Assembly: GCA_018260615.1 (NCBI GenBank)
Contig: JAGWDQ010000044.1
Coordinates: 13,791 to 77,790 of the forward strand
Source: Candidatus Altarchaeum sp.
Lineage (GTDB): Archaea > Altiarchaeota > Altiarchaeia > Altiarchaeales > Altiarchaeaceae
Direction of reading: 5' to 3'
Length of the DNA stretch: 64,000 bases
The position numbers and the translations under genes were made by a program. Under the pieces are notes generated by a model, which saw only the letters and a list, made by a program, of their open reading frames with translations, was not told the origin of the DNA and did not search any database. Of the stretch, positions 6,692 through 60,580 are shown piece after piece (position 1 is the stretch's first letter; each line of letters begins with the position of its first letter).

Positions 6692-6699
6692 AAATTTAA

Positions 6700-11654: not shown

Positions 11655-11656
11655 AA

Positions 11657-14335: not shown

Positions 14336-14375
14336 TTTCGTTAAGTTTTGGTATTTATTTTAAATTTTTAAAAAT

Positions 14376-15023: not shown

Positions 15024-15155
15024 TAAATTTATTATATATTTTTAACTTTTTATTAATTATTTCTAACTAAAAGTTAGATTTATATAACATATTAGGATTT
15101 AATATAAATAAATAAATAAATAAAAATATTTTTTCAGAAGAAAGAAAACTTCATT

Positions 15156-15911: not shown

Positions 15912-16059
15912 AATTAAATTTTATAAATTTAAAATTATAAGCAAAGTCGTAATTATAAAAAATTTTGCCAAAACATTAAAAATAGACCTGTTGCTAATTA
16001 AAATTTCATAATGTGAAATATGTAAAATTCAAAGATAGAATAGTTATTTGACAACAACC

Positions 16060-17091
16060 CTAATCTATAGAGAGCTTATTTTGTTTACTTATTATTGTCT
16101 GCACAATTCGTGGAAGAGGTATTTTACATTCTCCTTCGGGCATCGTTATTTTCCATCTAAATATAGGTATTTCAATCTCAGCACCATTTATAGTTTTGTC
16201 TTTGTCGTCAAGAACTTTTATCGTGACTGTTTTGGCAGCATATTGCAAAGTCCCAAGCAATTGTGCTTTTTCAACATCGGGTGAAGGGGAATAAAAACAA
16301 CCCTTATCATCTGTTTTGGCTTCAATGTTATTTCCCCCAAATTTTATTTTTATTGGCACATCAACATTTATACTCTTATAATCTAAACGATATAAAAATA
16401 TCGGCAAAGAAAAGCTAAACATCTCTTCATGGTTCTCTCCTTCCAGTTTTTTTTCCCACATCACCAATATCGTTCCAAAAGTGTTTGCAACAAGGGCACC
16501 AATTGACATCGCAATTATGAGATCTTTTGTTTCATCAAGAAATAAAGATAACCAAGCTAAACCACCTAAAATAAAGAACAGAATGATTCCAAACAACATA
16601 ACCGTTTTACGGTTTTCTGAAGAGGTCTTTTCTGAGCGTGCAAAAATCTCTAAAATAATAAAAATAATGATTGCAAAAACAACCACCGAAAATATTAATG
16701 AGAGGAGATTTTCTCCATTCCACATACTTCCCGCAGCAACGATTGCAGGAATGTAATGCAAATCTGCAACGAATGACGATATTAGAGCCATCATAATAAT
16801 TATTGTTATTTTAGATGATTTTCCATCCATTCTATTTTCTTTGTCTATTTGATGTCTATGCAAAAAGTCCACGAACTTCCTGAGTGTTGCAGCAATGGAT
16901 AGTAACGCTATTATTAGAAGTTCCCAAAATGTTTTAAAAAACTCCCAAAATCCTATTTTAGAGATTTCCGAAGCATCAACGCTCATTATATGCACTAAAA
17001 AAGTTACATTAAATGTTAAAATCATAAATTGTAATACAAAAGTCACTGGAAGTATTCCTATGCCTTTCTTTATTTTTGATGTATATGTCAT
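16060..17091 (-). CDS. Uncharacterised membrane protein, member of 3-gene paralog cluster (motif 'ADLHYIPAI')
   Basis: Multi-TM; 'FVADLHYIPAIVAAGS' shared with 17151 ('IAADIHFIFAIM') and 19349 ('IIADFHYIPAIFIL') proteins. Confidence 0.5.
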   Translation of the reverse strand: MTYTSKIKKGIGILPVTFVLQFMILTFNVTFLVHIMSVDASEISKIGFWEFFKTFWELLIIALLSIAATLRKFVDFLHRHQIDKENRMDGKSSKITIIIMMALISSFVADLHYIPAIVAAGSMWNGENLLSLIFSVVVFAIIIFIILEIFARSEKTSSENRKTVMLFGIILFFILGGLAWLSLFLDETKDLIIAMSIGALVANTFGTILVMWEKKLEGENHEEMFSFSLPIFLYRLDYKSINVDVPIKIKFGGNNIEAKTDDKGCFYSPSPDVEKAQLLGTLQYAAKTVTIKVLDDKDKTINGAEIEIPIFRWKITMPEGECKIPLPRIVQTIISKQNKLSID

Positions 17092-17150
17092 TTTACTTTT
17101 ATATTAATTGTTTATATCATTAATTAAATTATTTTATAAGAATAAATAAA

Positions 17151-27949: not shown

Positions 27950-28789
27950 TTATCTCTTTTTTCTGCTTTCCAGCATTGCTTCTGTTTCAGTTATAACATC
28001 GCCACCTCTATTTTTTGCATCAATTATTCTGAGCAAATGTGCAGGTTTCCCGCCTGTGTTGTTATATACATTTTCCTGCTCCTCCTCGCTAAAATTATGT
28101 TTTTTTAGGAATTTTTTTGTTGTTTCTTCATCAAAATTATCTATTAACAAATATCTGCACCTGTCTTTAAGTATTGCTTCATTATAGACCCTTTCAATAA
28201 ATAAAGAGTCAGAAGATAAAGCAAAAACATGACAAATATGTAATTCTTTTGTTAAGCGAATGAAGAAATTAAATAATTTATAAATTACTTTTCCGTTAAT
28301 TTCAAGGTCCCCTATAACCTGCAGTTCATCAATGATCAAAATCGGAATCTTTGTTTCACTTATTTTTAAAAAATACTCCTCCAAAAATTCAAAAACATCC
28401 TCAGAACTTTTGGTTTCAAGAAATCCGTCAAGCATATCTTTTTCTATCGGAATGCCTGACAGGTATCTTCCTGCCAGTACAAGTGCCTTTTTAGCGAGCT
28501 TTTCGCCTTTTTCTATTACCTTTTCAGAGATTTCTTTTCTCTTAACTTTGAATAATACCCTCACAAATCCGCCGTATTCTTTTATAAGTTTTCCCCGCAG
28601 ATTTATGTAAAAAACAACATATTTATCTTTTGGCAAGTCATCAATCAATTTTTGAATTAAAGTCGTCTTTCCTGAATTTATAGGGCCGTAGATGAAATTT
28701 ATCTCCCGCGGTTCTTGCCTTAAAATGTGCAAAATTTCTTCTTTTTCCTTTTCCCTGTCAAAAAATTCAGTCCTTTGAATGCCTTTCAT
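27950..28789 (-). CDS. Arch_ATPase-family (COG1672-like) P-loop ATPase, probably truncated/frameshifted copy (C-terminal remnant continues in 27650-27950)
   Basis: 'GPINSGKTTLIQKLIDD', 'IIDELQVIGD'; ~190 aa identical to 28991-30094 paralog; downstream minus-strand region encodes '...YLVKNNILFAECVNETIKPQSKLDLLAIREILKGM' homologous to paralog C-terminus. Confidence 0.6.
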   Translation of the reverse strand: MKGIQRTEFFDREKEKEEILHILRQEPREINFIYGPINSGKTTLIQKLIDDLPKDKYVVFYINLRGKLIKEYGGFVRVLFKVKRKEISEKVIEKGEKLAKKALVLAGRYLSGIPIEKDMLDGFLETKSSEDVFEFLEEYFLKISETKIPILIIDELQVIGDLEINGKVIYKLFNFFIRLTKELHICHVFALSSDSLFIERVYNEAILKDRCRYLLIDNFDEETTKKFLKKHNFSEEEQENVYNNTGGKPAHLLRIIDAKNRGGDVITETEAMLESRKKR

Positions 28790-28990
28790 GTTCTATAAAT
28801 TTAATTCTATAATTTGTTATTTTGCATAAAGATTTATCAATTTGGTTTATATCTCAAAATGTGTAAAATTTTAATATTTTACTTTCCCTGTCAAAAAATT
28901 CAATTATCAGAAGGTTGTTTGTGTTCATAGTTTATTTAAATTTATTCCATAGTAACAATCTTATCAATCAAAGCAAACACATCAAATAAA

Positions 28991-30094
28991 TTATTTTATT
29001 TCCTTTAAAATTTCTCTTATCGCGGTCAGGATGATTTTTGATTGTGGTTTTATTATTCCGCTCTTTGAATTCACAAACAATATGTTTCTATTAACCAGAT
29101 ATATTTTCTCAGGTCTGCTTATTTCCACATCCTCTGTTTCTTCTTTATCTTTAAACTTCTTTAACACATCTATTATTTTGTGCCTTTCAACAGGTATTTT
29201 CTCCTTTCCTATTTCTATTTTTGGTTTTACATATAATAATTCATCCAGCATGTCTATCAAAAAACGCTTTTTCTCATCAGTCGTTTCCTTCATGAAAATT
29301 GTAATATCTTTATTTTGTGCCAGTAATTTTATTAAGTCCCCCGGCTTCCCGCCAAAATACTGAATAGCAATATCTGTATCTCCGAAGTTATATTTTTCCA
29401 AAAATTTTCTCGCGGTTTCTTTATCAAAATCATCAACTAACAAATAGTTTGTCCTTCCTTCGAGCATTGCTTCGGCATAAACCCTTTCAATAAATAATGA
29501 ATCAGAAGATAAAGCAAAAACATGACAAATATGTAATTCTTTTGTTAAGCGGATGAAGAAATTAAATAATTTATAAATTGCTTTTCCGTTAATTTCAAGG
29601 TCCCCTATAACCTGCAGTTCGTCAATGATCAAAATCGGAATCTTTGTTTCACTTATTTTTAAAAAATACTCCTCCAAAAATTCAAAAACATCCTCAGAAC
29701 TTTTGGTTTCAAGAAATCCGTCAAGCATATCTTTTTCTATCGGAATGCCTGACAGGTATCTTCCTGCCAGTACAAGTGCCTTTTTAGCGAGCTTTTCGCC
29801 TTTTTCTATTACCTTTTCAGAGATTTCTTTTCTCTTAACTTTGAATAATACCCTCACAAATCCGCCGTATTCTTTTATAAGTTTTCCCCGCAGATTTATG
29901 TAAAAAACAACATATTTATCTTTTGGCAAGTCATCAATCAATTTTTGAATTAAAGTCGTCTTTCCTGAATTTATAGGGCCGTAGATGAAATTTATCTCCC
30001 GCGGTTCTTGCCTTAAAATGCTCAATATTTCCTCCTTTTCTCTTTCCCTGTTAAAAAATTCAATGGAATGTTCAAATTTTTCAGTTGCATTCAT
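28991..30094 (-). CDS. Arch_ATPase-family (COG1672-like) P-loop ATPase, full-length paralog
   Basis: Walker A 'GPINSGKTT', Walker B 'LIIDELQ'; 367 aa; tandem duplicate of 27950-28789. Confidence 0.65.
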   Translation of the reverse strand: MNATEKFEHSIEFFNREREKEEILSILRQEPREINFIYGPINSGKTTLIQKLIDDLPKDKYVVFYINLRGKLIKEYGGFVRVLFKVKRKEISEKVIEKGEKLAKKALVLAGRYLSGIPIEKDMLDGFLETKSSEDVFEFLEEYFLKISETKIPILIIDELQVIGDLEINGKAIYKLFNFFIRLTKELHICHVFALSSDSLFIERVYAEAMLEGRTNYLLVDDFDKETARKFLEKYNFGDTDIAIQYFGGKPGDLIKLLAQNKDITIFMKETTDEKKRFLIDMLDELLYVKPKIEIGKEKIPVERHKIIDVLKKFKDKEETEDVEISRPEKIYLVNRNILFVNSKSGIIKPQSKIILTAIREILKEIK

Positions 30095-37879: not shown

Positions 37880-38105
37880 ATCGTACCGGAAAGTTCGTTT
37901 TATGAGCCTCACACGGAGACACAGAGACACAAAGGGGTTATATTCTGTAATCCGGTGACTTTGTGGCTTTTAAAAATTTCACAAATTTTTAAAGATTGAA
38001 AATCTTACAGATTTTCAGTATTTTCAAAACCCAAAGGTTTTGAAAATCTCCGAGCAACAGCGAGGTGAACAGCGAGGTTATTGTGTGAAGATTATTCTGA
38101 TTTTT
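37880..38105. repeat. Composite intergenic repeat element (long-hairpin 'GAGCCTCACACGGAGACACAGAGACACAAAGG...GTGACTTTGTGGC' module + TTTTGAAAATC modules)
   Basis: Matches 54717-54830 and (inverted) 60400-60528; ends 'attattctgatttttt' like 54815-54830. Confidence 0.7.
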
Positions 38106-40265: not shown

Positions 40266-40292
40266 ATAGTAGTAAAATACAGATATGATAAA

Positions 40293-40429
40293 ATGGAAAT
40301 ATCCAATTTCAAAAAGAACGGAAATATTGTAACATTCACCGTAAAGGGTATGGAAATTAACTTTTCTTTTCTTTAAAAAAGAAAAGAAAACACTACGAAA
40401 AGAAAAAAAATTTAAAATAAAAATTTAAT
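40293..40429. repeat. 59-bp diverged duplicate of rpoD start (40293-40351) + hairpin mini-element 'ACTTTTCTTTTCTTTAAAAAAGAAAAGAAAACACTACGAAAAGAAAAAAAATTT' (40352-40429)
   Basis: 'atggaaatatccaatttcaaaaagaacggaaatattgtaacattcaccgtaaagggtat' vs gene start 40430 'atggacatatcaaacttcaaaaagaacggaaatattgtaacattcaccgtaaagggtat'. Confidence 0.75.
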
Positions 40430-41011
40430 ATGGACATATCAAACTTCAAAAAGAACGGAAATATTGTAACATTCACCGTAAAGGGTATAAACACAGCAAT
40501 GGCAAATGCTATTCGCAGAGCAATAATTACAAATGTTCCGATAGCTGCAATAGAAAAGGTAACAATTGATAAGAATTCATCTGCGCTGGCTGATGAGATA
40601 CTTGCTCACAGATTGGGATTAATACCTTTCAAAACGGATATAAAAAATTTTATAGATACAAATGTTTCATTAGATGTTATAAATGATTCGGACAAATTAA
40701 AAACCATCTATACAAGGGATTTGAAATCGAGCAATCCGGATATTATTCCTGTTTATGACAACATGCCAATAGTAAAACTCTCAAAGGGACAACAAATAAA
40801 ACTTGAAGCGACAGTAGAGCTGGGGAAAGGCAGGGAGCATGTAAAATGGCAGGGCGGTCTGGCAAGTTACGAAATTAACGAAGAAAATAAATTTAACTTT
40901 TTTGTGGAATCATTCATGCAATTAGATGCCGATGAATTAATCAGTGCGGCATGTGACGAATTAATTAAAGAAAACGAACAATTCAGGAACTTTGTTTCAA
41001 CAATAAAATAA
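40430..41011 (+). CDS. rpoD: DNA-directed RNA polymerase subunit D (Rpo3)
   Basis: 'AMANAIRRAIITNVPIAAIEKVTIDKNSSALADEILAHRLGLIPF'; conserved position after S11. Confidence 0.8.
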   Translation: MDISNFKKNGNIVTFTVKGINTAMANAIRRAIITNVPIAAIEKVTIDKNSSALADEILAHRLGLIPFKTDIKNFIDTNVSLDVINDSDKLKTIYTRDLKSSNPDIIPVYDNMPIVKLSKGQQIKLEATVELGKGREHVKWQGGLASYEINEENKFNFFVESFMQLDADELISAACDELIKENEQFRNFVSTIK

Positions 41012-41056: not shown

Positions 41057-41422
41057 ATGGCAAGAATATTTAAAAATCCAAATCCGTTAAGGGTCAAACT
41101 TGTAGATGATTTAAAAAATTTTAATACGGATAAGAATTACGGAATTTGGAATAAAGTGATTAAGGAATTGTCAAGGTCAAGGAAAAACAGGAGAAATGTA
41201 AATTTATGGAAAATAAATAAAAATACAAATGAAGGGGATGTTATTGTCGTGCCGGGAAAAGTGCTTGGGCATGGAGAAATCGGACATAAAGTTACAATTG
41301 CAGCGTTTGAATTTTCAGAAGGTGTAAAGCAAAAAGTAACAAACAATAATGTGCGACTAATGTCAATTTATGAATTGTTTAATGAAAATCCAAAAGGAAG
41401 TAATATTAAAATAATCGGTTAA
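41057..41422 (+). CDS. rpl18e: 50S ribosomal protein L18e
   Basis: N-terminal 'MARIFKNPNPLRVKLVDDLKNF', 121 aa, conserved gene order. Confidence 0.75.
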   Translation: MARIFKNPNPLRVKLVDDLKNFNTDKNYGIWNKVIKELSRSRKNRRNVNLWKINKNTNEGDVIVVPGKVLGHGEIGHKVTIAAFEFSEGVKQKVTNNNVRLMSIYELFNENPKGSNIKIIG

Positions 41423-41445
41423 AAATGATTGTAAATGCTGAAGGG

Positions 41446-41543
41446 CAAAGGTTGAACTTTTCTTTTTTAGAAAAAAAGAAAACATTCAGAAAAGAAAAAA
41501 CACAAAAATAAATTTATAAAATTTATATATTAATATGATTTGT
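41446..41543. repeat. Hairpin mini-element 'AACTTTTCTTTTTTAGAAAAAAAGAAAACATTCAGAAAAGAAAAAACAC...' flanked by 25-bp direct duplication of rplM start
   Basis: 'taaaaatgattgtaaatgctgaagg' at 41421-41445 and 41544-41568. Confidence 0.75.
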
Positions 41544-41548
41544 TAAAA

Positions 41549-42031
41549 ATGATTGTAAATGCTGAAGGACAGGTTCTCGGAAGAATGGCATCTTTTGTGG
41601 CAAAAAGGGTCTTGAGGGGAGATCAGGTAATAGTAGTTAATGCTGAAAAGGCATTGATTTCAGGAACAAAAACAGGAATCCAGACAGAAGCAGACAGAAG
41701 ATTAGGTATAAGAAACTGGGGAAACCCAAAAAAAGGCCCTTATATGATGAAACGGCCTGATAATTTTGTGAGAAGGGCCATAAGAGGAATGTTGCCATAT
41801 AACAAAAACAGATACGGAGCGAGAGGTAGAGAAGCGTTCAAAGATGTAATTGTATTTATGGGCGTTCCGAAAAAAGAGATAGAAAAATACGACAAAACTT
41901 TCAGGCCCGCAAATATTAATGAAATTTCCGATAAAAACATACAAAAAAAACCACTGAGAAAATACGTGTATGTATCTGAATTTTGTAAAATTTTGGGCAA
42001 TAAAACAACAATAAAACAAAATACTATTTAA
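41549..42031 (+). CDS. rpl13: 50S ribosomal protein L13 (uL13)
   Basis: 'MIVNAEGQVLGRMASFVAKRVLRGDQVIVVNAEKALISG'; start at ATG within duplicated target. Confidence 0.85.
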   Translation: MIVNAEGQVLGRMASFVAKRVLRGDQVIVVNAEKALISGTKTGIQTEADRRLGIRNWGNPKKGPYMMKRPDNFVRRAIRGMLPYNKNRYGARGREAFKDVIVFMGVPKKEIEKYDKTFRPANINEISDKNIQKKPLRKYVYVSEFCKILGNKTTIKQNTI

Positions 42032-44221: not shown

Positions 44222-44470
44222 TTGTTTCCATACTACATCACCTCACTTACGCTCACTTCGTTCCACTCACTTCGTTCGTGTCTTTTCAAAACCTCACCTC
44301 ACTTCGTTCGGAGATTTTCAAAACTCTGCGTTTTGAAAACTGCGGTTTTGAAAATCGTGTATTTTCGGGACAAGCCCGAAAATCGTTCGGAGATTCTCAA
44401 ACAAGTTTGAAAATCACCTCGTTTTACTCGGAGATTTTCAAAATCTGCGATTTTGAAAATAGTGCAATTT
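44222..44470. repeat. Intergenic repeat element, TTTTGAAAATC-hairpin family (multiple 'cggagattttcaaaa' / 'ttttgaaaatc' hairpins)
   Basis: 'cactcacttcgttcgtgtcttttcaaaacct' identical to 6762-6792; palindromic 'gattttcaaaa...ttttgaaaatc' units. Confidence 0.7.
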
Positions 44471-44583
44471 AAACAAAAGATATATATAATTAAGTTTTAA
44501 AATAAATTAATAAAAGAATAACAAAGCGAAACCACTCTAAATTAAAAATTAATTAAAAATTTTAATTAAAATTATAAAAAAAT

Positions 44584-45168
44584 ATGTTCCTCACCCATTC
44601 CCTTATAAAGCCAGACACCGTTGAACTGCGAAAGTATCAGGAAGCGATAATCGCAACATCGGCAAATAAAAATACAATAGTTGTACTTCCGACGGGACTT
44701 GGAAAAACGCTGATTGCCGTAATTGTTGCCGCACATCGGCTGGATAAATTTAATGGCTCAAAGGTTCTGTTTTTAGCACCTACCAAGCCGCTTGCAGTAC
44801 AGCATGCAGAGACATTCAGACAAATTTTAAATTTAAAGGACGATGAAATTTGTGTATTCACATCGGCAACACCGACAAATAAGCGAAACGACTTATGGGA
44901 GAAATCACGGGTTATTCTGGCAACGCCTCAAACGATAGACAACGAAATAATGAAAAATTTAGATTTGAGCAATGTTTCTTTTCTGGTTTTTGATGAAGCA
45001 CACAGAGCAGTCGGAAATTATGCTTACGGGTTCATTGCAGGCGAATATATGAAAAAAGCAAAGCATCCGCTGATTATGGGATTGAGTGCTTCTCCGTCAT
45101 CTGATATTGAGAAAATTTCGGAAATTTCAAAAAATTTGTTCATACAGTCGGTTGAAATAAGCACTTAA
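44584..45168 (+). pseudogene. Truncated duplicate of the N-terminal ~190 codons of hef (47477-49765)
   Basis: DNA nearly identical to 47477-48053 from start codon onward (identical antisense ORFs 44637-44861 and 47530-47754); diverges at 45160 and terminates. Confidence 0.85.
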
Positions 45169-45327
45169 ACATAATTTTAAACAGCGAAAAATTTGATTTA
45201 ACCTTATCAAGAAAATTTTTAAACAAAATCAAATTTTTAACGTTCAAAAATTTATTTAATTTAAATACTTCTAATCTAAATTAATTTACAACAATTTACA
45301 ACATGTCCAATGTTTAATTTATTTAAA

Positions 45328-45843
45328 ATGAAAAACACAAATAAAATTTTATTAGGGGTTGGAATAAGTTGTATTTTTGTTATACTAATGGCTTTTGTAA
45401 TGGCTACTGATAATGGAATTGAGAAAGCGTTAAACAAAACAACAAACTAGAGTAGTAAATATGATTCAATTGCTGTCCAGGCAAATAATTCAATTCTTAA
45501 CGAAGTAAAAAACAAAACCTTGTTTGATAAACCCTTAAATAACTCATACTTGCCCAAAATCGGAAAAAAGGGGATAAATTTTTTAGTTATAGGAGACAAA
45601 GTAGTATATTATGATGTGAAAGGTGGAACTTCTAAAAAATACACATTAAATGAAAGTGAATGGAAAGATTTAATAAATATCAAAAAAAGAATGAATAATT
45701 CAATTGATGTGTTGGTAATTAATGATTTTGTTATTAAAAAAAATCATGGACTTATTGAAAATAACATAACTTATGTGGAAATAGATAAAAATAAAATATA
45801 TAAGAAGGTAACTGCTAATATAAGCGCAAAAATTGAAAAATAA
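45328..45843 (+). pseudogene. Putative secreted protein gene interrupted by in-frame TAG at 45448-45450 (signal-anchor N-terminus 45328-45447 continues in frame into ORF 45520-45843)
   Basis: ATG 45328 'MKNTNKILLGVGISCIFVILMAFVMATDNGIEKALNKTTN*SSKYDS...'; same frame as ORF-track 45520 (which uses TTG start). Confidence 0.4.
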
Positions 45844-45857
45844 CCTAAAACTCAAAA

Positions 45858-46340
45858 ATGTCAAGAAAAATAAAAATTTTTGATTTCAAAAAAGCGTGGA
45901 ATGATAGAATAGAAAGGAAAAATATAATTATGTTTATTTTGGCGGTAGCGTTAGGATTAGTTTTAATATCATTAGCCATAACATCCAAATGTATGTCGCT
46001 ATTATTCTCATTTGGATATTTAGGAGATCTTGGCAAAAATTGTGATGTTCGTATACCTATTGATTTTGTTATCCTTGTGTTATTAGTACTAATCTATGAA
46101 TTTATATTTACAGAACATACAAGAATTATCGGAGTATGGTTTGCAAATTTACAAGAGAGGTGGGGAGGAAATATGATTGTATTTAGTTATTTTGCGAGTG
46201 TTGGTTTTTTTGGAGGTATCTTGCAATACTTGATGCCCCATTCTACGATACCTGTGTTGGTATTTGGTGCGCTCTTTATGATCGCTTTCATTTATTCCCT
46301 TATTCCAATTTCATGGCTCAAAAAAATTAAAAAAATATAA
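45858..46340 (+). CDS. Small polytopic membrane protein (4 TM)
   Basis: Hydrophobic helices; 160 aa; inside hef-associated insertion. Confidence 0.45.
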   Translation: MSRKIKIFDFKKAWNDRIERKNIIMFILAVALGLVLISLAITSKCMSLLFSFGYLGDLGKNCDVRIPIDFVILVLLVLIYEFIFTEHTRIIGVWFANLQERWGGNMIVFSYFASVGFFGGILQYLMPHSTIPVLVFGALFMIAFIYSLIPISWLKKIKKI

Positions 46341-46519
46341 AACAGCAAAAATGGAGATTAAAATATTTTCACTGTCTGAAAATAGCAATAAAGAAATAAA
46401 AAACAAAACAATAGACATGTTGCGAAATAATTTTCAATTTATTGCTACAATATATTCATAATAATTTCAATAAACCATATAAACTATTTCACAACAACTC
46501 TATTATTTTACAGTAAAAA

Positions 46520-47242
46520 ATGAATAAAAAACAAACAAAAATTTTATTGCTCCTCATAACAATCATTATTGGAGTAGTAATAATAAGTGGATGCGTAAAC
46601 AATGAAGAAAATAAAATCGGCGAAGAAGGAATGAATGAAACAAACGACTATTATCCATTAGAAGTGGGAAATCAATGGGTGTTTGCGGTGAAAAAGGAAA
46701 CTGAAGGGGAAAATCCTCAAAATAGTATAACAACAGTACAAATCACTAAAAAAGAAATGATAAACAATATAGAAACTTTTGTTATAGAATATGAGACGGA
46801 CAATAACACATCCCAAATAGAATATGTTAATAAAGAATATGGAAAAATTTTATGCTGTAGGCGAATATCTCAAGGAAAGGAACAAAATTATTATCCTCTA
46901 CAATTATGGGCTGATTTTTCATCACTTAAAAAGGGAAAGAAATGGAAATGGGCTGACAATACAATAAATGTAGAGTTAGAAGGAGAAATACTTGGAAAAG
47001 ACGTAATAACCGTTCCTGCAGGAACATTTGAGACATATATAGTAAAAATCACAACAAGTCCGAAAGATAATGTTAGAGGAATTGCAAACGTAAAGTGGAT
47101 GGGGTGGTTCGCCAAAAATATTGGAGTTGTAAAAGAAGATGCACATATTTATGCTAATGTTTCCATTAATAATAATAAGCGACTAATAGTTAACACTCAT
47201 ATAATAGCGGAACTAAAAAGTTATAACATTTCAAAAAAATAA
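46520..47242 (+). CDS. Secreted/lipoprotein-like protein (signal peptide + 'SGCVNN')
   Basis: N-terminal 'MNKKQTKILLLLITIIIGVVIISGC' signal with Cys; 240 aa. Confidence 0.45.
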   Translation: MNKKQTKILLLLITIIIGVVIISGCVNNEENKIGEEGMNETNDYYPLEVGNQWVFAVKKETEGENPQNSITTVQITKKEMINNIETFVIEYETDNNTSQIEYVNKEYGKILCCRRISQGKEQNYYPLQLWADFSSLKKGKKWKWADNTINVELEGEILGKDVITVPAGTFETYIVKITTSPKDNVRGIANVKWMGWFAKNIGVVKEDAHIYANVSINNNKRLIVNTHIIAELKSYNISKK

Positions 47243-47476
47243 AATGAAAAATAATGTTTTGTTTATATTTTCTTTTTGTGCCTATTTTCCTGATTTTTGT
47301 ATGAGATTGGGTAAGATGATTTTTTAAATTTTTATACCTTCTCAAATAATATTTTTCACTGAAAAGTAAAGCCAAATAAGTCAATTTACCATGTTTTATT
47401 GAGTGGATATGAATTTTTTAAACAAAAAACTAATTCTTAAAATATTTTAACATACTGTTGTTCATTACTTATTATT

Positions 47477-49765
47477 ATGTTCCTCACACACCCCCTCATA
47501 AAGCCGGACACCGTTGAACTGCGAAAGTATCAGGAAGCGATAATCGCAACATCGGCAAATAAAAATACAATAGTTGTACTTCCGACGGGACTTGGAAAAA
47601 CGCTGATTGCCGTAATTGTTGCCGCACATCGGCTGGATAAATTTAATGGCTCAAAGGTTCTGTTTTTAGCACCTACCAAGCCGCTTGCAGTACAGCATGC
47701 AGAGACATTCAGACAAATTTTAAATTTAAAGGACGATGAAATTTGTGTATTCACATCGGCAACACCGACAAATAAGCGAAACGACTTATGGGAGAAATCA
47801 CGGGTTATTCTGGCAACGCCTCAAACGATAGACAACGAAATAATGAAAAATTTAGATTTGAGCAATGTTTCTTTTCTGGTTTTTGATGAAGCACACAGAG
47901 CAGTCGGAAATTATGCTTACGGGTTCATTGCAGGCGAATATATGAAAAAAGCAAAGCATCCGCTGATTATGGGATTGAGTGCTTCTCCGTCATCTGATAT
48001 TGAGAAAATTTCGGAAATTTCAAAAAATCTGTTCATACAGTCGGTTGAGATAAGGACCGAAAATGACAGCGATGTCCGGGAGTATATAATGAAAGTGGAG
48101 GAAGAATGGGTAAAGGTTGAACTGCCTGCGGACTTTAAAGGAATAAGGGATAAACTTGCGGACTTGCTTAAATTTTACCTGAAACAGTTAAAGGATATGA
48201 ATTACATTGATACGATTAATTTGACAAATATTAACAAAAAGGACTTATTGGCTGTTCAGGAAAGAATAAGGGGCGACATATTGAGCGGAAACGGAAATTT
48301 CGATGCGGCATCGCTTATTGCAAAAATTATAAAACTTCATTATGCTCTTGAACTTATAGAGACGCAGGGAATTTTTACTTTATACAGGTATCTTGAACGG
48401 CTGAATCTGCAAAAAGGTAAAGGAGTAAAAGAGATGTTTTCCGATGAGCGTATGAAGGAAATCTGTGAAAATGTTAAAATTTTGTATGATGCAAAAACAG
48501 ACCATCCGAAGTTAGATGCAATCTTAAAAATTTTAAAGGAAGAGTTGGGTAGTTCGGAAGACAGAAAAAACAGGAAAATTTTGCTGTTCACTCAATACCG
48601 GGACACTGCCGAAAAAATTTATGAAATTTTAACGAACAACAACATAAAATGCGAGAAATTTATAGGTCAGGCAAGGAGAGATAATGACAAAGGAATGACG
48701 CAAAAAGAGCAAATTGCATCACTTGAGAAATTCAAAAATAATACATTTAATGTGCTGATTGCAACTTCTGTCGCAGAAGAAGGCCTGGATATTCCCAAGG
48801 TTGATATTGTAATATTTTATGAGCCGATTCCAAGCAGTATAAGAGCAATACAAAGGAGGGGAAGAACGGGAAGAATGTATGAAGGAAAGGTGATAATTTT
48901 GATGACAAGGGGGACGAGGGACGAAGGATATTACTGGAGTGCGGTTTCAAAGGAAAGAAAGATGAAGGAATATCTGACAAAATTCCAGATTTCAGGAAAA
49001 GAAGGCATTGAAAAAGAAGTACAAAAAAGACATGGGCAGCAAAGTATTTTATTGTACGACGATAATAATAAAGAGGATAACAAAGATAATGAAGAAAACA
49101 ATAACAAAGATAAAAACGAAAGACCTAAAATTTATGCCGATATACGGGAGCGAAACACGGAAATTTTTAAAATTTTAAATGAAAAGGCAGATGTCATAGT
49201 CAGGCAGTTAGAGGTTGGGGACTATATATTGAGCGAAAATGTATGTGTTGAGAGAAAGACAGCCGGTGATTTCTTACAGTCAATTGTTGATAGACGACTA
49301 CTTGAACAGGCACAAAATTTAGTGAGAAATTTTGAAATTCCGATAATTATCATAGAAGGTGAATTAAATTTGTCTTCAAGAAATATTCATCCGAATGCAG
49401 TCCGGGGAATGCTCGCCGCAATAGCAACTGACTTTAAAATTTCCATCATTCCGACAAAAGACGAAAATGATACCGCCGAAATGCTGTTCATAATCGCAAA
49501 AAGAGAGCAGGAAGAAAAAAGAAATCCGGTTGCTTTAATCGGTGAAAAGAGGGCTTACACTCTTGCCGAGAGACAGCACTTAATTGCCGAATCACTTCCA
49601 AATGTGTCTGCTGTGATTGCCGAACGGCTGCTTGAACGTTTTAAGACGATAAAAAAAATTGCAAATGCTGGCATTAAGGAATTAATAAAAGTTGAAGGAA
49701 TCGGATTAAAAAAGGCAGATGAAATTTTTAAGGTTACACATTCGGAGTATAAAAAGGAGAAATAA
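47477..49765 (+). CDS. hef: Hef-like helicase-nuclease (SF2 helicase + ERCC4/XPF nuclease + HhH2)
   Basis: 'VVLPTGLGKTLIA', 'LVFDEAHRA', helicase C 'ATSVAEEGLDIP', ERCC4 'ENVCVERKTAGDFLQS', C-terminal HhH; D/N/K/E-rich insert ~aa 525-555. Confidence 0.85.
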   Translation: MFLTHPLIKPDTVELRKYQEAIIATSANKNTIVVLPTGLGKTLIAVIVAAHRLDKFNGSKVLFLAPTKPLAVQHAETFRQILNLKDDEICVFTSATPTNKRNDLWEKSRVILATPQTIDNEIMKNLDLSNVSFLVFDEAHRAVGNYAYGFIAGEYMKKAKHPLIMGLSASPSSDIEKISEISKNLFIQSVEIRTENDSDVREYIMKVEEEWVKVELPADFKGIRDKLADLLKFYLKQLKDMNYIDTINLTNINKKDLLAVQERIRGDILSGNGNFDAASLIAKIIKLHYALELIETQGIFTLYRYLERLNLQKGKGVKEMFSDERMKEICENVKILYDAKTDHPKLDAILKILKEELGSSEDRKNRKILLFTQYRDTAEKIYEILTNNNIKCEKFIGQARRDNDKGMTQKEQIASLEKFKNNTFNVLIATSVAEEGLDIPKVDIVIFYEPIPSSIRAIQRRGRTGRMYEGKVIILMTRGTRDEGYYWSAVSKERKMKEYLTKFQISGKEGIEKEVQKRHGQQSILLYDDNNKEDNKDNEENNNKDKNERPKIYADIRERNTEIFKILNEKADVIVRQLEVGDYILSENVCVERKTAGDFLQSIVDRRLLEQAQNLVRNFEIPIIIIEGELNLSSRNIHPNAVRGMLAAIATDFKISIIPTKDENDTAEMLFIIAKREQEEKRNPVALIGEKRAYTLAERQHLIAESLPNVSAVIAERLLERFKTIKKIANAGIKELIKVEGIGLKKADEIFKVTHSEYKKEK

Positions 49766-49782
49766 ACAAAATGTTCACACAA

Positions 49783-49925
49783 TCACCTCACTTACGCTCA
49801 CTTCGTTCGTGTATTTTCAAATCTCTGTGATTTGAAAATCGTTCGGAGATTTTCAAAATCTGTTGATTTTGAAAAAGACACAAAGGAGTAATTCTCTGTG
49901 GCTTATTGGCTTGGTGTGAGGGAGT
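49783..49925. repeat. Intergenic repeat element (TTTTGAAAATC modules + partial long-hairpin module 'GACACAAAGG...GGCTTGGTGTGAGGG')
   Basis: 'cctcacttacgctcacttcgttcgtgt' as in 44241-44270; 'gattttcaaaatctgttgattttgaaaa' palindrome. Confidence 0.7.
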
Positions 49926-54716: not shown

Positions 54717-54830
54717 ATCGTACAGGAAAGTTCGTTTTATTTTTGGTCCCTCACACCAAGACACAGAGACACAAAGGGCAATGTTGCTCTGTGACTTTGT
54801 GGCTTTGTGTGAGTATTCTTCTGATTTTTT
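54717..54830. repeat. Long-hairpin intergenic repeat ('CGTACAGGAAAGTTCGTTTTAT...CCTCACACCAAGACACAGAGACACAAAGG...CTCTGTGACTTTGTGGCTTTGTGTGAG...TTCTGATTTTTTT')
   Basis: Reverse complement of 60400-60528 (inverted partner 5.6 kb away); direct copy at 37880-37975. Confidence 0.8.
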
Positions 54831-54855
54831 TAAAAATTCGTCGTGGCAAACTCTT

Positions 54856-55992
54856 TTATTCCAAAATTTTTACTATTTTGTAATCAGTTGTTCTTATAGC
54901 CGGAATCCTGCCTGCTCCTTTTATTAAATTTTTCAGTTCCTCAACATTCGCACTTCTTTCCGAAATTTTTCCCGCTGCGTAAGTTATATTTTCCTTTTCA
55001 ATGGTTCCGTCAAAATCATTTGCCCCGTAATGAAGTGCTACCTGTGCCAAATTTTTCCCGAGCATAACCCAATATGATCTTATATTGTCAAAATTATCAA
55101 GCAATATTCGTGATACTGCAATAACCTTTAAATCATCTATCCCGCTTACAGGCATCGTTACAAGTCCTTTGTTATATAAATTTGTGCCTTTCGGATGAAA
55201 ACTTAAAGGAATAAAACCCAGAAATCCGTTTGTCTTTTCCTGCAAATCCCTGAGCTTTAATATATGCATGACTCTGTCCTCATTGCTTTCAATATGTCCG
55301 TAAAGCATTGTCGCATTGCTCCTTATTCCTAATTTGTGTGCGGTTTCCATGACATTGAGCCATTCATCGCTTTTCAGTTTATTCGGACAAATTTTACTTC
55401 TTATTTCATCGTTTAAAATTTCTGCCCCTCCGCCGGGTATAAAATTTAATCCCGCATCTTTAAAACGTTCCAAAATTTCTTTAATGCTGCTTTTATTCCT
55501 CTTTGCTATGAAAAAAATTTCTGTTGCCGTAAATGCTTTAATTGCCAAATCCGGAAAATTTTTCCTTATCTCTTTCAGTATGTTCTCGTAATATTCAACA
55601 GGAATTTCCGGGTTTAAACTTCCGACGATATGAACCTCGCTTATATTGCTTATTTGCCGTGCCTTTTTGACCATCTCTAAAATTTTATCAATACTTATAA
55701 CATAGCCATCTTTGTCTTCCTGAGATTTGTAATACGCACAGAGTTCGCATTTGCTTACGCAGATATTTGTATAATTTATGTGTAAATTTAAAACGAATGA
55801 GACAATATCTCCGACCTTGTTTTTTCTTATTTTATCTGCTGCTGTGCCTAAATTTAAGATGTCGTTTGAATTCATTAAGGCAATTCCGTCTTTTTCGGAA
55901 ATTTTGTCTCCTTTTACTGCTCGTTCAAGGATTTCGGAAATTTCGGAGTTAAATTTTTCGTTGGTAAATTTCATTTTGATTTCTTTATTCAA
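54856..55992 (-). CDS. Radical SAM enzyme of the CofH/CofG/MqnC/MqnE family
   Basis: 'NYTNICVSKCELCAYY' CxxxCxxC cluster motif, 'GGGAEIL', 'MLYGHIE'; 378 aa. Confidence 0.75.
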   Translation of the reverse strand: MNKEIKMKFTNEKFNSEISEILERAVKGDKISEKDGIALMNSNDILNLGTAADKIRKNKVGDIVSFVLNLHINYTNICVSKCELCAYYKSQEDKDGYVISIDKILEMVKKARQISNISEVHIVGSLNPEIPVEYYENILKEIRKNFPDLAIKAFTATEIFFIAKRNKSSIKEILERFKDAGLNFIPGGGAEILNDEIRSKICPNKLKSDEWLNVMETAHKLGIRSNATMLYGHIESNEDRVMHILKLRDLQEKTNGFLGFIPLSFHPKGTNLYNKGLVTMPVSGIDDLKVIAVSRILLDNFDNIRSYWVMLGKNLAQVALHYGANDFDGTIEKENITYAAGKISERSANVEELKNLIKGAGRIPAIRTTDYKIVKILE

Positions 55993-56073: not shown

Positions 56074-56316
56074 ATGGCTAAAAATAATTTAATGCAATTT
56101 AAGAAATGTAATTGTCCTCAAGAGTATTGGGAAGAAATTGTAGTTGACCATGACGAAAATTTTGATGACAGGTCTGTAATATATTTCCATTGTGATTTTT
56201 GTGGCGAGGATCATGCAATAGTTGATTTTTATACGGGAGAAATACTTTATCCAAAACAAAATGAGGAAAACAAATCCAAAGTTTCAACACTTAAAAAATC
56301 AGCACTTAAAAAATGA
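56074..56316 (+). CDS. Small Cys-containing (zinc-ribbon-like) protein
   Basis: 'CNCPQEY...HCDFCGEDH' ; 80 aa. Confidence 0.3.
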   Translation: MAKNNLMQFKKCNCPQEYWEEIVVDHDENFDDRSVIYFHCDFCGEDHAIVDFYTGEILYPKQNEENKSKVSTLKKSALKK

Positions 56317-56468
56317 TAAATGATAAATCAACTGAGGATTTAATAAACCAATGCATTAACGGTTATAAATTTTCCTTTGAAGAAGCAAGGGACTTGCTAA
56401 ATTTTGACCTAAACACACTTGGCTTGATTGCAGATGAACTAAAAAATAATAAAGAAATAATCCGATAA
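56304..56468 (+). pseudogene. Truncated copy (first ~50 codons) of the radical SAM gene at 58230
   Basis: Encodes 'MINDKSTEDLINQCINGYKFSFEEARDLLNFDLNTLGLIADELKNNKEII*' vs gene 'MMDTKKSVEEIINQCINGHKFSFEEAKDLLNFDLNTLGLIADEIRNKF...'. Confidence 0.8.
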
Positions 56469-56620
56469 CATTTGTTAAGGTTAAGGTTATAATTATTATA
56501 AGGACATAATTATCAATCATAAAATTAAAAACCAAAATGATGGGCAGGGGACGGATATAAACCACATGAAATAAGTGGATAAAAGTAAAGGACTAAAAGA
56601 AACATGTAAAAAACCAAAGT

Positions 56621-56716
56621 ATGAAAAAAACAGCATTTATGGCACATAGTTTTGAGGGTGGTGAAGTTGTGAAGAATGTTGTAAATAGAGGTATTAATAA
56701 TTACGATGGATATTGA
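56621..56716 (+). pseudogene. Truncated copy of the start of the TIR-domain gene (cf. 56993)
   Basis: 'MKKTAFMAHSFEGGEVVKNVVNRGINNYDGY*' vs 'MKKTAFIAHSFEDDESVKKIVNGF...'; preceded by same ~150-bp spacer as 56860-56992. Confidence 0.75.
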
Positions 56717-56860
56717 AAAATCAATTGATGAATTAATAAATAAATGTATTAACGGTTATAAATTTTCCTTTGAAGAAGCAAAGGACTTACTAAATTTTGA
56801 CTTAAACACGCTTGGCTTAATTGCAGATGAACTAATGAATAATAAAGAAATAATATGATA
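56706..56860 (+). pseudogene. Second truncated copy (first ~50 codons) of the radical SAM gene at 58230
   Basis: 'MDIEKSIDELINKCINGYKFSFEEAKDLLNFDLNTLGLIADELMNNKEII*'. Confidence 0.8.
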
Positions 56861-56992
56861 ATTTATTAATTGTAATGTTGTAATTATTAATCATAAAATT
56901 AAAAACCAAAATGGCGGGCAGGGGACGGATATAAACCACATGAAATACGTGGATAAAAGCAAAGGACTAAAAGACATGTAAAAAACCAAAGT

Positions 56993-58138
56993 ATGAAAAA
57001 AACAGCATTTATAGCACACAGTTTTGAAGATGATGAATCTGTGAAAAAAATTGTAAATGGATTTAAAGATATTTTTAGTTGTTATTTTGACATCGTTACT
57101 GGTGAAGAACCAAGTTCGAATAAATCTATTTCCAAGAAGGTTGAAGGTATGATAAAAGAGCAGGATGTGTTTATAGGTATTGTAACAAAAAGAAAAGACA
57201 GCGAATGGAGCACATCAGCATGGGTTCTAAACGAAGCAGTAACAGCAATGAATTTTAGCAAGCCAATTATCCTTTTGGTTGAAAAAGGTATAAATGAAAA
57301 AAATATGGGGATGGTAGGTAATGCAAGAGAATATATTTATTTTGATAGTAATGATATTTTTGAATATATTCCAAAAGTTATTAAAATTATTGAAGAGATA
57401 AATAAGCCATCTCCGGAAAATAATCTTCGTTTTCCTTACAAATTCAGAGAAGTAATAAACAGGATTACAATATACTCCGAAGGTAGGGGAATTTATGATA
57501 GAAGATGTATGCTGGAAGTACTTTCTGAAGATTTTACCAGGGTCGTTCATGCGATAGGACTAAGTGGTTGTACGCCAAAAACTACTGTTTTAAAACCTTT
57601 TAAAGATATCAAAACTACAAAAATCTCCGACAGATATGTGAAAGATCAATCTTTGTTTTGGAAGATATTTGAACCTAGGGACCTTGTTTTAAATCCCAAA
57701 AGGGTTTTATACGGGGGTGAATGGAAATCTTTGGATATTCCTGATGCAGAGGGATTTAATTTTTCTCTTAATTTCGGAAAATTTCCAATCGGAAGTACAA
57801 TAGAATATTCATACGGATTCTCCTGTAAAGACATGTTTCCCCTGAACAAATATCAACTTAAGAATGGACAGCTTTATATGGGGAAGACAAATAAACTTTC
57901 GGACTGGACGGAAGTAATAAGTGAAGTTGATAAGCTTGTGTTTGTCATTCAATTTGACCATGATTATAAACTAAAAGGATCGCCTGAGCTAATAATAACA
58001 ACACAAGATGGAGATAAAATAAAACACAGTTATAAATTTGAAAAGGAAACATCACTTTTTTACGAGACATACAAGGTAAGCATAGGAAGAACAACTCCTG
58101 GATTCAAATATGTTGTTGAATGGAAACCTGAAAATTGA
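56993..58138 (+). CDS. TIR-domain protein with ~250-aa C-terminal domain of unknown function
   Basis: N-terminal 'MKKTAFIAHSFEDDESV' (TIR betaA 'FISHS..D'), 'STSAWVLNEAV' matching TIR 'SxWCxxEL' catalytic-Glu motif; C-terminal beta-rich domain without recognisable motifs; 381 aa. Confidence 0.6.
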   Translation: MKKTAFIAHSFEDDESVKKIVNGFKDIFSCYFDIVTGEEPSSNKSISKKVEGMIKEQDVFIGIVTKRKDSEWSTSAWVLNEAVTAMNFSKPIILLVEKGINEKNMGMVGNAREYIYFDSNDIFEYIPKVIKIIEEINKPSPENNLRFPYKFREVINRITIYSEGRGIYDRRCMLEVLSEDFTRVVHAIGLSGCTPKTTVLKPFKDIKTTKISDRYVKDQSLFWKIFEPRDLVLNPKRVLYGGEWKSLDIPDAEGFNFSLNFGKFPIGSTIEYSYGFSCKDMFPLNKYQLKNGQLYMGKTNKLSDWTEVISEVDKLVFVIQFDHDYKLKGSPELIITTQDGDKIKHSYKFEKETSLFYETYKVSIGRTTPGFKYVVEWKPEN

Positions 58139-58229
58139 TATTCAAACATATTTTTTAGTGTTTTGATGACATAGTAAATACTATTTTTAAAAGATATATT
58201 AATAAAAGTAGATAAATGTAGGGATAATT

Positions 58230-59327
58230 ATGATGGATACTAAAAAATCAGTTGAAGAGATAATAAATCAATGCATTAACGGCCATAAATTTTCCTTTGA
58301 AGAAGCAAAGGACTTGCTAAATTTTGACTTAAACACGCTTGGCTTAATTGCAGATGAAATAAGGAATAAATTTTGTGGCAATACCGTAACCTTTGTCTGC
58401 GACACAACTATAAACTACACAAATATTTGTTCAGGCAAATGTAAATTTTGTGCATTTTACCGAAACAAATCCGCAGGCGACGCTTATGTATTAACCATTG
58501 ACGAAATTCTGCAAAAAACTGAAAAAGCAGGAAATTTGGGAGCGACACAGGTTTTGCTTCAGGGCGGATTAAATAAAGATATTTCATTAAGTTATTACGA
58601 AACCATTATTAAAGCAGTTAAACAAAAATTTCCCGATGTTCAGAGACACTTTTTTTCTGCTGCTGAAATTTACTTTATCGCAAAAAACAACAATTTATCT
58701 GTTGATGAGGTGCTGGAAAGATTCAAAGAGTGCGGATTGCAGAGTTTCGGAGGCGGAGGTGCTGAAATTTTAGTTACTCAAATAAGGAAAGAAATTTCGC
58801 CGGATAAAATTTCCGCCGAAGAATGGAAAGATGTTATTATGAAGGCACATAAAACCGGAATTAAAACATCTGCAACTATGGTTTATGGATTTGGCGAAAG
58901 TAAAGAAGACCGTCTAAGGCATTTGTTATTTTTAAGGGACATTCAGTATGAAACGAATGGATTTACTGCATTTATTCCGTGGAGTTTTCAGCCCGAAAAT
59001 ACTGCTTTGGGGCAAAATAAATTTTATAAATTTCCGGCTGGGGGAATTGATTACCTTGAAATAATTGCATTGGCGAGGATAATATTCAATAAATTTTTAA
59101 GGAACATTCAGGCATCCTGGCTGACAGAAGGCGAAAAGCTCGCACAGATTGCTTTATTTTACGGAGCAAATGATTTCAGCGGAACGATAATAGAAGAAAA
59201 TGTCGTAAAAGAGGCGGGAATAAAATTTAGCGGAAAGACAAAAGAAGAAATGATAAATTTAATTCAGCAAGTTGGAAGAATTCCCGCACAAAGAGATACA
59301 TTTTACAATGTTCTGAAAGTGTTTTGA
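58230..59327 (+). CDS. Radical SAM enzyme of the CofH/CofG/MqnC/MqnE family (paralog of 54856-55992)
   Basis: 'NYTNICSGKCKFCAFY', 'GGGGAEIL', 'MVYGFGES'; 365 aa. Confidence 0.75.
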   Translation: MMDTKKSVEEIINQCINGHKFSFEEAKDLLNFDLNTLGLIADEIRNKFCGNTVTFVCDTTINYTNICSGKCKFCAFYRNKSAGDAYVLTIDEILQKTEKAGNLGATQVLLQGGLNKDISLSYYETIIKAVKQKFPDVQRHFFSAAEIYFIAKNNNLSVDEVLERFKECGLQSFGGGGAEILVTQIRKEISPDKISAEEWKDVIMKAHKTGIKTSATMVYGFGESKEDRLRHLLFLRDIQYETNGFTAFIPWSFQPENTALGQNKFYKFPAGGIDYLEIIALARIIFNKFLRNIQASWLTEGEKLAQIALFYGANDFSGTIIEENVVKEAGIKFSGKTKEEMINLIQQVGRIPAQRDTFYNVLKVF

Positions 59328-60338: not shown

Positions 60339-60580
60339 AAATCCGCCTTTTTCTTTTAGGAAAAGAAATACGCTCACTTCGCTCGTGTCTTTTCAAAACC
60401 TCTGCGGTTTTGAAAAAATCAGAAGAATACTCACACAAAGCCACAAAGTCACAAGGTTACAGAATATAACTCCTTTGTGTCTCTGTGTCTCCGTGTGAGG
60501 CTCATAAAACGAACTTTCCCGTACGATGAAAAAAGCACGGGGGAAAAAGAAAAAAGTAAACCGTTGAAAAATTTTTGCTT
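60338..60580. repeat. Nested repeats: hairpin mini-element ('CCTTTTTCTTTTAGGAAAAGAAA' ... 'GAAAAAGAAAAAAGTAAACCGTTGAAAAATTT') interrupted by inverted copy of the long-hairpin element (60370-60528)
   Basis: 60545-60578 matches 2188-2223 nearly exactly; 60400-60528 is reverse complement of 54717-54830. Confidence 0.75.

Follow-up and report, generated by a model that had tools for sequence, protein, structure and literature searches.

Why does a gene for a TIR-like protein stand directly upstream of mqnC, a radical SAM gene for the synthesis of vitamin K2, in an archaeal chromosome, and why is it preceded by broken copies of both the mqnC start and its own? We addressed this question in a 64,000-nt stretch of DNA from Candidatus Altarchaeum sp. 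(the window), in which the locus reads mqnE, an 80-aa open reading frame (ORF), unit A (R1-S1-T1'), unit B (R2-S2-TIR gene), a 91-nt tail and intact mqnC. The answer that we favor, with a probability of roughly 55%, is that the 381-aa product is an accessory, stand-alone, effector-type protein that is predicted to cleave nucleotides, and that its cassette was acquired by recombination followed by unequal crossover.

The left neighbor, mqnE (54856..55992, minus strand), is divergently transcribed and encodes aminofutalosine synthase (TIGR03700, 439.9 bits vs. a cutoff of 434.55); it is 96% identical to mqnE of L023, a genome in which the site is empty. All other features of the locus lie on the plus strand. 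The 80-aa ORF (ORF80; 56074..56316) is Cys-rich and zinc-ribbon-like (CxC...CxxC), resident in the mqnE-mqnC spacer and without a match in Pfam or NCBIfam, and its stop codon overlaps the ATG of R1. R1 (56313..56468; repeat core 56288-56449) is a truncated mqnC 5' end that is read as a 51-aa ORF and broken after codon ~46. It is followed by S1 (56450..56620), the leader of a decayed first cassette copy, which is 86% identical to S2 and includes a short upstream ORF (uORF) at 56537-56560 (MMGRGRI-stop), and by T1' (56621..56716), a truncated TIR gene start read as a 31-aa ORF. T1' is homologous to codons 1 to ~23 of the full gene (73% over 22 aa by tblastn); past this homology, T1' continues into 25 nt that resemble the sequence immediately 5' of intact mqnC.

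Unit B begins with R2 (56681..56858), a second truncated mqnC start that holds a 50-aa ORF (56706-56858) and is a hybrid by alignment, and continues with the cassette leader S2 (56843..56992), which holds a 7-codon uORF at 56911-56934 (MAGRGRI-stop). The gene for the 381-aa protein (56993..58138), TIR-like over residues ~1-137 and a beta-sandwich over residues ~148-381, comes next. In the cassette tail and spacer behind it (58139..58229), about 25 T-rich nucleotides are common to cassettes elsewhere, and the remaining spacer matches only the same-site allele of L026. Intact mqnC (58230..59327, 365 aa) carries the third repeat copy, R3 (58208-58369). The 5' region of mqnC is therefore present in three copies of 162 nt that are 77–88% identical (56288-56449, 56681-56842 and 58208-58369), the leader in two (56490-56611 and 56864-56985; 86% identical) and the TIR gene start in two (56597-56702 and 56969-57074; 82% identical). 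The TIR ORF, the tandem units and the truncated starts reported in the initial annotation are thus all found where it had placed them, and the downstream gene, which it had called radical SAM, is identified by TIGR03699 as MqnC (451.5 bits vs. a cutoff of 428.1).

The origin of the duplicated starts can be approached by comparing alleles, as the mqnE-mqnC spacer occurs in three states among related genomes. In L023 and L024 (HGW-Altiarchaeales-2-type), a 73-aa ORF is directly followed by mqnC and there is no cassette (state i); in L026 and L013/L014, the cassette stands alone, with neither the small ORF nor a duplication (state ii); the third state is the arrangement of the window. The small ORF behaves as an allelic alternative to the TIR cassette, which occupies its position in L026/L013. 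Residues 1-65 of ORF80 (195 nt) are 100% identical to the 73-aa ORF of L023, and a single-A indel alters the C-terminus of ORF80 relative to the 73-aa version. Up to the break at codon ~46, ORF80 and R1 together match the empty allele of L023 at 358 of 365 positions (98.1%), which identifies R1 as the resident mqnC start in its native context.

Intact mqnC shows a different profile. Its identity to L023 is 85.8% over 58230-58380, 89.5% over 58381-58600 and 97.2% beyond, where the background identity in mqnE and RFC is 96–97%, and immediately 5' of R3 the sequence shows homology to the allele of state (ii). From these alignments, the first ~370 nt of intact mqnC appear to be a foreign, diverged allele. 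Because the R3 region is diverged and the sequence upstream of it matches state (ii), the cassette probably came with this foreign mqnC 5' segment. Duplication of the target in situ predicts that the dead copy drifts while the live copy stays close to its relatives, and the opposite pattern is seen. R2 is a hybrid, resembling R3 in its upstream 25 nt and 5' part and R1 in its tail and leader junction, and is the expected product of an unequal crossover between R3 and R1. T1' stops where it shares the microhomology GTAAAT with the spacer that precedes mqnC, and an internal deletion is the suggested cause. A single illegitimate junction is seen, from mqnC codon ~46 to the leader, and it lies in A-rich microhomology.

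In the scheme that we propose, donor DNA from a lineage with the cassette directly 5' of mqnC would have recombined into an ORF80-mqnC chromosome, with one exchange inside mqnC (~58,590-58,640) and the other junction fusing mqnC codon ~46 to the cassette leader at the A-rich microhomology. The resident start would be stranded as R1, and a complete mqnC would be supplied with R3. The R copies could then have served as substrates for unequal crossover, yielding the hybrid R2 and a second cassette copy, and a later internal deletion would have left the remnant S1-T1'. Alternatively, both exchanges were homologous and the donor already carried the duplicated array. A plain tandem duplication of unit A into unit B in situ was rejected, as the 25 nt upstream of R2 fit the context of R3 and not that of R1, and as the two units are only 82–86% identical to each other, whereas the adjacent ORF80 is 100% identical to L023 over 195 nt.

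Three points weigh against this history. S1/T1' and S2/T2 are only 82–86% identical, so the two units represent different cassette alleles, and the history is a mosaic without a unique order of events. Some of the excess divergence past the repeat falls within a segment in which all alleles vary. Finally, the first arrival of the cassette at a new site lies outside the proposed scheme.

The cassette is a discrete unit of ~1.35 kb, comprising the leader (roughly 130-230 nt), the TIR ORF and a short T-rich tail, with a GC content of 28–31%, slightly lower than that of its flanks. In pairwise comparisons between sites, homology starts ~110-230 nt 5' of the ATG (only ~10 nt for some pairs) and stops ~5-30 nt past the stop codon, occasionally up to 65 nt; between the window cassette and cassettes elsewhere, it starts ~133-163 nt 5' of the ATG. 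No terminal inverted repeats were found at the cassette ends, no mobility gene within the cassette, whose contents are the TIR ORF and leader only, and no integrase in the cassette or its neighbors.

Close homologs (43–86% identity) are confined to Altiarchaeales, in which cassettes are located at no fewer than five chromosomal sites: in the mqnE-mqnC spacer (window, L013, L014 and L026); between an RNA-ligase gene and ksgA, with a PIN gene and HpaII-type restriction-modification genes alongside (L001-L004); in the gap that separates an IS630-like transposase from an amidohydrolase (L005-L007); 5' of another radical SAM gene with TPR/radical SAM neighbors (L008); and 5' of an APS-kinase-like gene (L011). 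In L016, it is present as two tandem copies: a distant cassette (P0007) recurs after 1498 nt within positions 1-1743, the overlapping parts agreeing at 240 of 245 positions, which shows cassette amplification in another lineage. Duplicated target DNA flanks the cassette at three sites, over 46 nt in L001, 18-35 nt in L011 and 146-162 nt in the window, and the flanking repeats are a different host sequence at each. Two conventional routes were rejected: integrase-mediated site-specific integration, since there is no integrase and no att core constant across sites, and classical transposition of an insertion sequence or miniature inverted-repeat transposable element (MITE), since inverted repeats are absent and the repeat length varies from 18 to 582 nt.

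Searches with a profile of a 9-sequence alignment matched only Altiarchaeales A3 among GTDB genomes and, by the same approach, found nothing in metagenome contigs or in IMG/VR viral contigs; there is thus no evidence in IMG/VR for a virus-borne cassette. A profile search with alignment A3 against a 5.8-billion-protein index recovered only one distant member.

The same topology recurs at other genes. Comparing the window with itself, we looked for native upstream sequence, a copy of a gene start, an insert, and a second copy running into the intact gene. This pattern was found at nuoB (47-nt repeat, 76-nt insert), rpoD (63-nt repeat, 74-nt insert), rpl13 (45-nt repeat, 79-nt insert) and hef. 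At hef, which encodes a helicase/nuclease, the repeat comprises codons 1-194 (582 nt, 99% identical; 44583-45164 and 47476-48057), with mismatches clustering in the first 40 nt, and encloses a 2311-nt insert (45165-47475) with three co-oriented ORFs, whose products are a protein of 107 aa, a membrane protein of 160 aa and a DUF3108-like lipoprotein of 240 aa. The other three inserts belong to one family, element E, a poly-pyrimidine/poly-purine hairpin (CTTTTTCTTTT...AAAAGAAAAAG) followed by a second purine tract, 74-79 nt long in the window. Element E occurs in the window at 2105-2271, 40289-40488, 41403-41571 and 60509-60576; at nuoB, rpoD and rpl13 it lies just inside the gene start, each time between direct repeats of 45-63 nt in which the start codon is contained, and the fourth copy, 5' of trkH, is without repeats. 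One further repeat pair, 28719-28769 and 28853-28902, was rejected as such an insertion because it belongs to a tandem array of ATPase_2 paralogs.

Relatives share this topology at spt4 and a nitroreductase gene (L001) and at trkH (L026). In L026, positions 6361-6822 hold three perfect 175-nt units, each a 112-nt trkH start (100% identical) plus element E, and the trkH start is single in the window and in L023, which gives a comparison of empty and filled sites. In L001, element E stands at the 3' end of ksgA (7893-8120), flanked by a perfect 38-nt repeat that spans the stop codon; this copy is itself interrupted by a repeat that resembles repetitive extragenic palindromic (REP) sequences. Since element E is inserted at a gene 3' end, the process is not specific for start codons. 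The initial annotation had described the TIR gene as start-codon-targeted cargo, and this part did not hold: the cassette lies in the mqnE-mqnC spacer without duplication in L013 and L026, the duplication in the window is mosaic and recombinant, and a comparable duplication is found at a gene end. Gene starts are probably where insertions survive, and not what they aim at. Starts and ends tolerate insertion because the duplicated piece regenerates an intact gene.

Could the repeats nonetheless be true target-site duplications, made when a trans-acting transposition or integration machinery makes staggered cuts in the host DNA, 18-600 nt apart, and inserts the cassette, element E and other cargo in situ? 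The arrangement of target copy, insert, and target copy plus gene at many loci, including the 74-79-nt inserts of the window, agrees with this, as do the single copies of the duplicated sequence in empty alleles and the similar cassette boundaries across sites. We nevertheless regard it as unlikely. At mqnC, it is the functional R3 that has diverged and not the dead R1, and the divergence extends past the end of the repeat; the cassette sits in the same spacer of L013/L026 without duplication; there are no inverted ends; and a scan of the 28 larger window ORFs turned up neither a transposase nor an integrase.

A precedent exists in bacteria. Furuta, Abe & Kobayashi (2010; PMC2853133) described an 'insertion with long target duplication' of bacterial restriction-modification genes, a name that is linked also to Nobusato et al. 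(2000). In their cases, repeats of 45 to ~420 bp flank inserts without mobility genes, are single in genomes with an empty site, and allow amplification at a later stage; none of the cases that passed their screen was archaeal, and they left the mechanism open (PMC2853133). The window cassette likewise carries a defence-type gene without a transposase, integrase or inverted repeats, and R1/R3 relative to L023 are direct repeats of more than 30 bp that are single in the empty site; trkH also fits, in the comparison of L026 with the window and L023. The cargo differs, as it comprises here a TIR gene, the hairpin element of 74-79 nt and a block of three genes (2.3 kb) instead of restriction-modification genes, and so does the host, here archaeal vs. 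bacterial. The allele mosaicism seen here, which points to homologous exchange with a donor allele, is an addition to that earlier picture. The locus is thus an archaeal counterpart of this insertion mode, with other cargo and filtered by selection. The mode itself was already known, and unexplained; what is new here is an archaeal instance outside restriction-modification, together with the TIR architecture.

Homology-facilitated illegitimate recombination, reportedly described by de Vries and Wackernagel in 2002 in the natural transformation of competent bacteria, has a related geometry, with one end anchored by homology (here in mqnC) and the other joined at microhomology (here at codon ~46). 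That process was studied experimentally in competent bacteria, whereas exchange in Altiarchaeales is deduced from sequence only.

We turn to the protein itself, whose sequence (the product of 56993-58138) is 100% identical to that of a protein of the metagenome-assembled genome HGW-Altiarchaeales-1. A phmmer search of 1.84 billion cluster representatives (E ≤ 1e-3) returned 337 relatives, of which ~25 are full length (358-404 aa); many others carry only residues ~1-135, in other architectures. TIR_2 is matched by 14 of 27 full-length relatives (best E 3.4e-7); P0010 reaches 31.2 bits, which exceeds the gathering score, and relatives of the N-terminal domain in other architectures match TIR_2 or CAP12/Pycsar TIR above threshold. 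An alignment of 27 full-length members shows seven invariant residues, F11, K49, E81, F117, F261, Y272 and W377. When PDB sequences were searched with a profile, the alignment paired the family consensus 'spWvlsEl' (WVLNE in the window protein) with SSWCLDEL of a plant TIR NADase (7xoz). In an AlphaFold2 model of the 381-aa protein (pLDDT, the predicted local distance difference test, 84.5; pTM, the predicted template modeling score, 0.73), residues 1-137 form a five-stranded alpha/beta domain with a flavodoxin-like fold that superposes on solved TIR domains. The initial proposal of a TIR-like N-terminal domain with a conserved glutamate is borne out in that E81 is invariant in 27 sequences and aligns with the glutamate of SSWCLDEL. 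Glu81, in the helix after strand C, is the predicted catalytic glutamate of the SxWCxxEL type.

Several observations speak against this assignment or limit it. The window protein scores 21.4 bits against TIR_2 (PF13676), under the gathering score of 28, and 15-19 bits against the PADLOC ThsB models (E 1.9e-4 to 3e-3), also sub-threshold; its structural matches are slightly better to nucleoside 2-deoxyribosyltransferase (NDT) enzymes than to TIR domains; and the NADase and defence reading rests on sequence, fold and gene context. The N-terminal domain belongs to the TIR/NDT superfamily and lies on the border between the two, where the TIR call is a reasonable one.

These matches raise the question of whether the domain is instead an NDT or a DNPH1-like salvage enzyme or hydrolase, which would make the protein a metabolic accessory and not an immune effector. 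Similarity to the NDT fold is indeed found, with DNPH1 and NDT among the Foldseek matches. PF05014 (Nuc_deoxyrib_tr) is touched by three of the 27 relatives, and the family consensus 'ElgyAlgknKp' resembles the NDT catalytic-Glu motif. However, the window protein itself has no match to PF05014, and the three relatives match it weakly (best E 0.0012), compared with the 14 that match TIR_2; the relatives in other architectures pass the TIR_2 and CAP12/Pycsar TIR thresholds; and the patchy distribution, variable location and defence-island neighborhoods of the family suit an enzyme of this kind poorly. Compared with NDT, DNPH1 (Rcl) and MilB, to which profile matches are weaker than to TIR_2, the window family lacks housekeeping-like conservation and a fixed genomic location, and the window protein is fused to a large extra domain. 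A metabolic role is therefore distinctly unlikely.

This extra domain comprises residues 148-381, which are modeled as a well-predicted all-beta domain resembling the N-domain of M1 aminopeptidases, ribophorin I and BDI_1141. The initial annotation had called the C-terminal part uncharacterised; this stands insofar as its ~230 aa match no Pfam family, but the fold, of the M1-aminopeptidase N-domain/ribophorin I type, is not novel. Most likely, the beta-sandwich acts as a binding or sensor module. Binding of an invader component by the beta-sandwich would induce self-association of the TIR domain, and the self-associated TIR would hydrolyze NAD+ or process nucleotides, leading to arrest of the infected cell. 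A role in defence, NADase chemistry, sensing by the beta-sandwich and a function of the uORF are all inferred.

The window protein shares with bacterial TIR effectors (Thoeris ThsB, TIR-STING, TIR-SAVED, SPARTA TIR-APAZ and SARM1-type NADases) the flavodoxin-like TIR fold, the conserved Glu after strand C that aligns with SxWCxxEL, the proposed fusion of TIR to a separate sensing domain, and a patchy distribution with defence-island contexts. It differs from them in its partner domain, an M1-aminopeptidase-N-domain/ribophorin I beta-sandwich vs. STING, SAVED, APAZ or NLR, and, unlike bacterial TIR systems, its locus has no ThsA, cyclase or Argonaute neighbor. In addition, the window protein falls below the TIR family thresholds, its host is archaeal, and its activity is a prediction.

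Another possibility is that the protein is the signal-producing half of a Thoeris-like system, with a ThsA-type effector encoded elsewhere. We find this improbable. The initial annotation saw no ThsA/SIR2/SLOG partner, and this extends beyond the window: no ThsA, SIR2, SLOG or Macro gene adjoins the cassette in five Altiarchaeales contexts (the window and four others), and the window ORFs that were scanned showed none of these domains. The cassette travels alone, with no partner gene conserved across its sites, and its product carries a large extra domain in contrast to the short typical ThsB proteins. In the broader family, one distant member (L043) adjoins ThsB_TIR and 8xMP, and another (L045) adjoins DruA and NurA/DUF87; the broad-family context rests on these two loci. 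The neighborhoods of L001, L043 and L045 point to a role in conflict or defence. A divergent paralog is present in HGW-Altiarchaeales-2.

All eight of the cassette lineages compared carry a uORF of 7–8 codons, 51-86 nt 5' of the TIR start; the comparison included L026, L001, L005, L008, L011, L016 and both window leaders. With its consensus M-x-G-(R/G)-G-(R/W/I)-(I/V)-stop, it is the only leader block kept in all eight. Frame and stop are retained in the most distant lineages, and the differences are largely in third positions (GGC/GGA/GGT, AGG/AGA and ATA/ATT). The simplest reading of these sequences is a translated regulatory leader peptide. A riboswitch or non-coding RNA was rejected, as RNAalifold on the eight leaders predicted 0 pairs. 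A search for the leader motif GGMAGGGGAYGGATATAAAC in JGI metagenomes gave ten matches at 45–63% GC without a TIR gene, which we attribute to chance.

The orientation of the inserts invites a further, highly doubtful reading, in which a dedicated and possibly RNA-templated process copies transcript-sized units (the cassette, element E and the cargo found in hef) into transcribed genes, in their 5' regions; the duplication would start at the host transcription start, where a nick-primed copy of the mRNA 5' end would switch template to the cargo RNA. Such a process would account for the co-orientation of cargo and host gene, for the left edges of the repeats and for the end of the cassette after a T-rich terminator. 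The cassette gene is co-oriented with the downstream gene in every resolved case, and cargo and host gene are co-oriented in the ten best-resolved events; an exception-like case is a 247-nt insert in the L001 nitroreductase start, where a small ORF was predicted in the opposite orientation. On their left side, the repeats begin 0-32 nt 5' of start codons, and the cassette ends just past its T-rich terminator. No reverse transcriptase was found among the 28 larger window ORFs scanned.

Finally, it is scarcely credible that the tandem units were produced by misassembly or by a chimera of strains living side by side: several strains do share samples, and short contigs break at the repeats, but the structure recurs with one ORF order in two JGI and two ENA/megahit assemblies (L017-L020), which represent two pipelines and include contigs as long as 89 kb, and the copies differ by 12–23%, which makes the assembly path through the repeats unambiguous. 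The 51-aa and 50-aa ORFs are called in all four assemblies and the 31-aa ORF in three. Because the copies have diverged, the units were not made by an assembler, and the tandem arrangement noticed at the outset is real.

Outside the locus, the window holds dispersed REP/MITE-like intergenic repeats of one family (CTCACTTCGTTCGGAGATTTTCAAAAC...GTTTTGAAAA) and a second, at 1465, 6747-6807, 38012, 44247-44459, 49778-49874, 54736-54927 and 60354-60527. In MITE density, Ca. Altiarchaeum ranks first among archaea (PMC11602168). The entire stretch from mqnE to RFC is enclosed by inverted copies (54790-54835 and 60408-60453; 98% complementary), and a pair at 37880-37970 and 60437-60527 is 95% complementary. 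An AAA_15/AAA_21 (AbiEii/OLD-like) ATPase gene followed by a 216-aa ORF lies at 10380-12307, and six minus-strand ORFs of 215-733 aa lie at 13151-20908; the four of these that were scanned (394, 343, 733 and 519 aa) gave no Pfam match except one sub-threshold DUF6394. Together, these two stretches may form another accessory or defence region. Tandem archaeal ATPase_2 (MJ1010-like) paralogs occupy 27950-30094; they share 678 nt at 94% identity and have short partial repeats in between. Neither Rfam nor tRNA scanning produced a match in the window.

What, then, does the locus mean for the family and its host? To our knowledge, TIR biology in archaea is barely explored, and we found no paper tying Altiarchaeales to TIR domains or to reverse transcriptase. 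The protein represents a new TIR architecture, a family of ~370-aa TIR plus beta-sandwich proteins in ~25 clusters at 50% identity; the members whose source name was checked are all annotated as hypothetical, and several paralogs occur in Altiarchaeales. It is a candidate for an immune effector encoded by a single gene, in a subsurface archaeon that is abundant and exposed to viruses, and its conserved uORF suggests translational control of a potentially toxic effector. For the insertion mode, which is mechanistically unexplained, these loci are a natural data set from an archaeal lineage in which it is frequent. The cargo ranges from ~63 nt to 2.3 kb, the allele mosaics point to a recombinational mechanism, and the empty, simple, duplicated and amplified states are all on hand for work on that mechanism.

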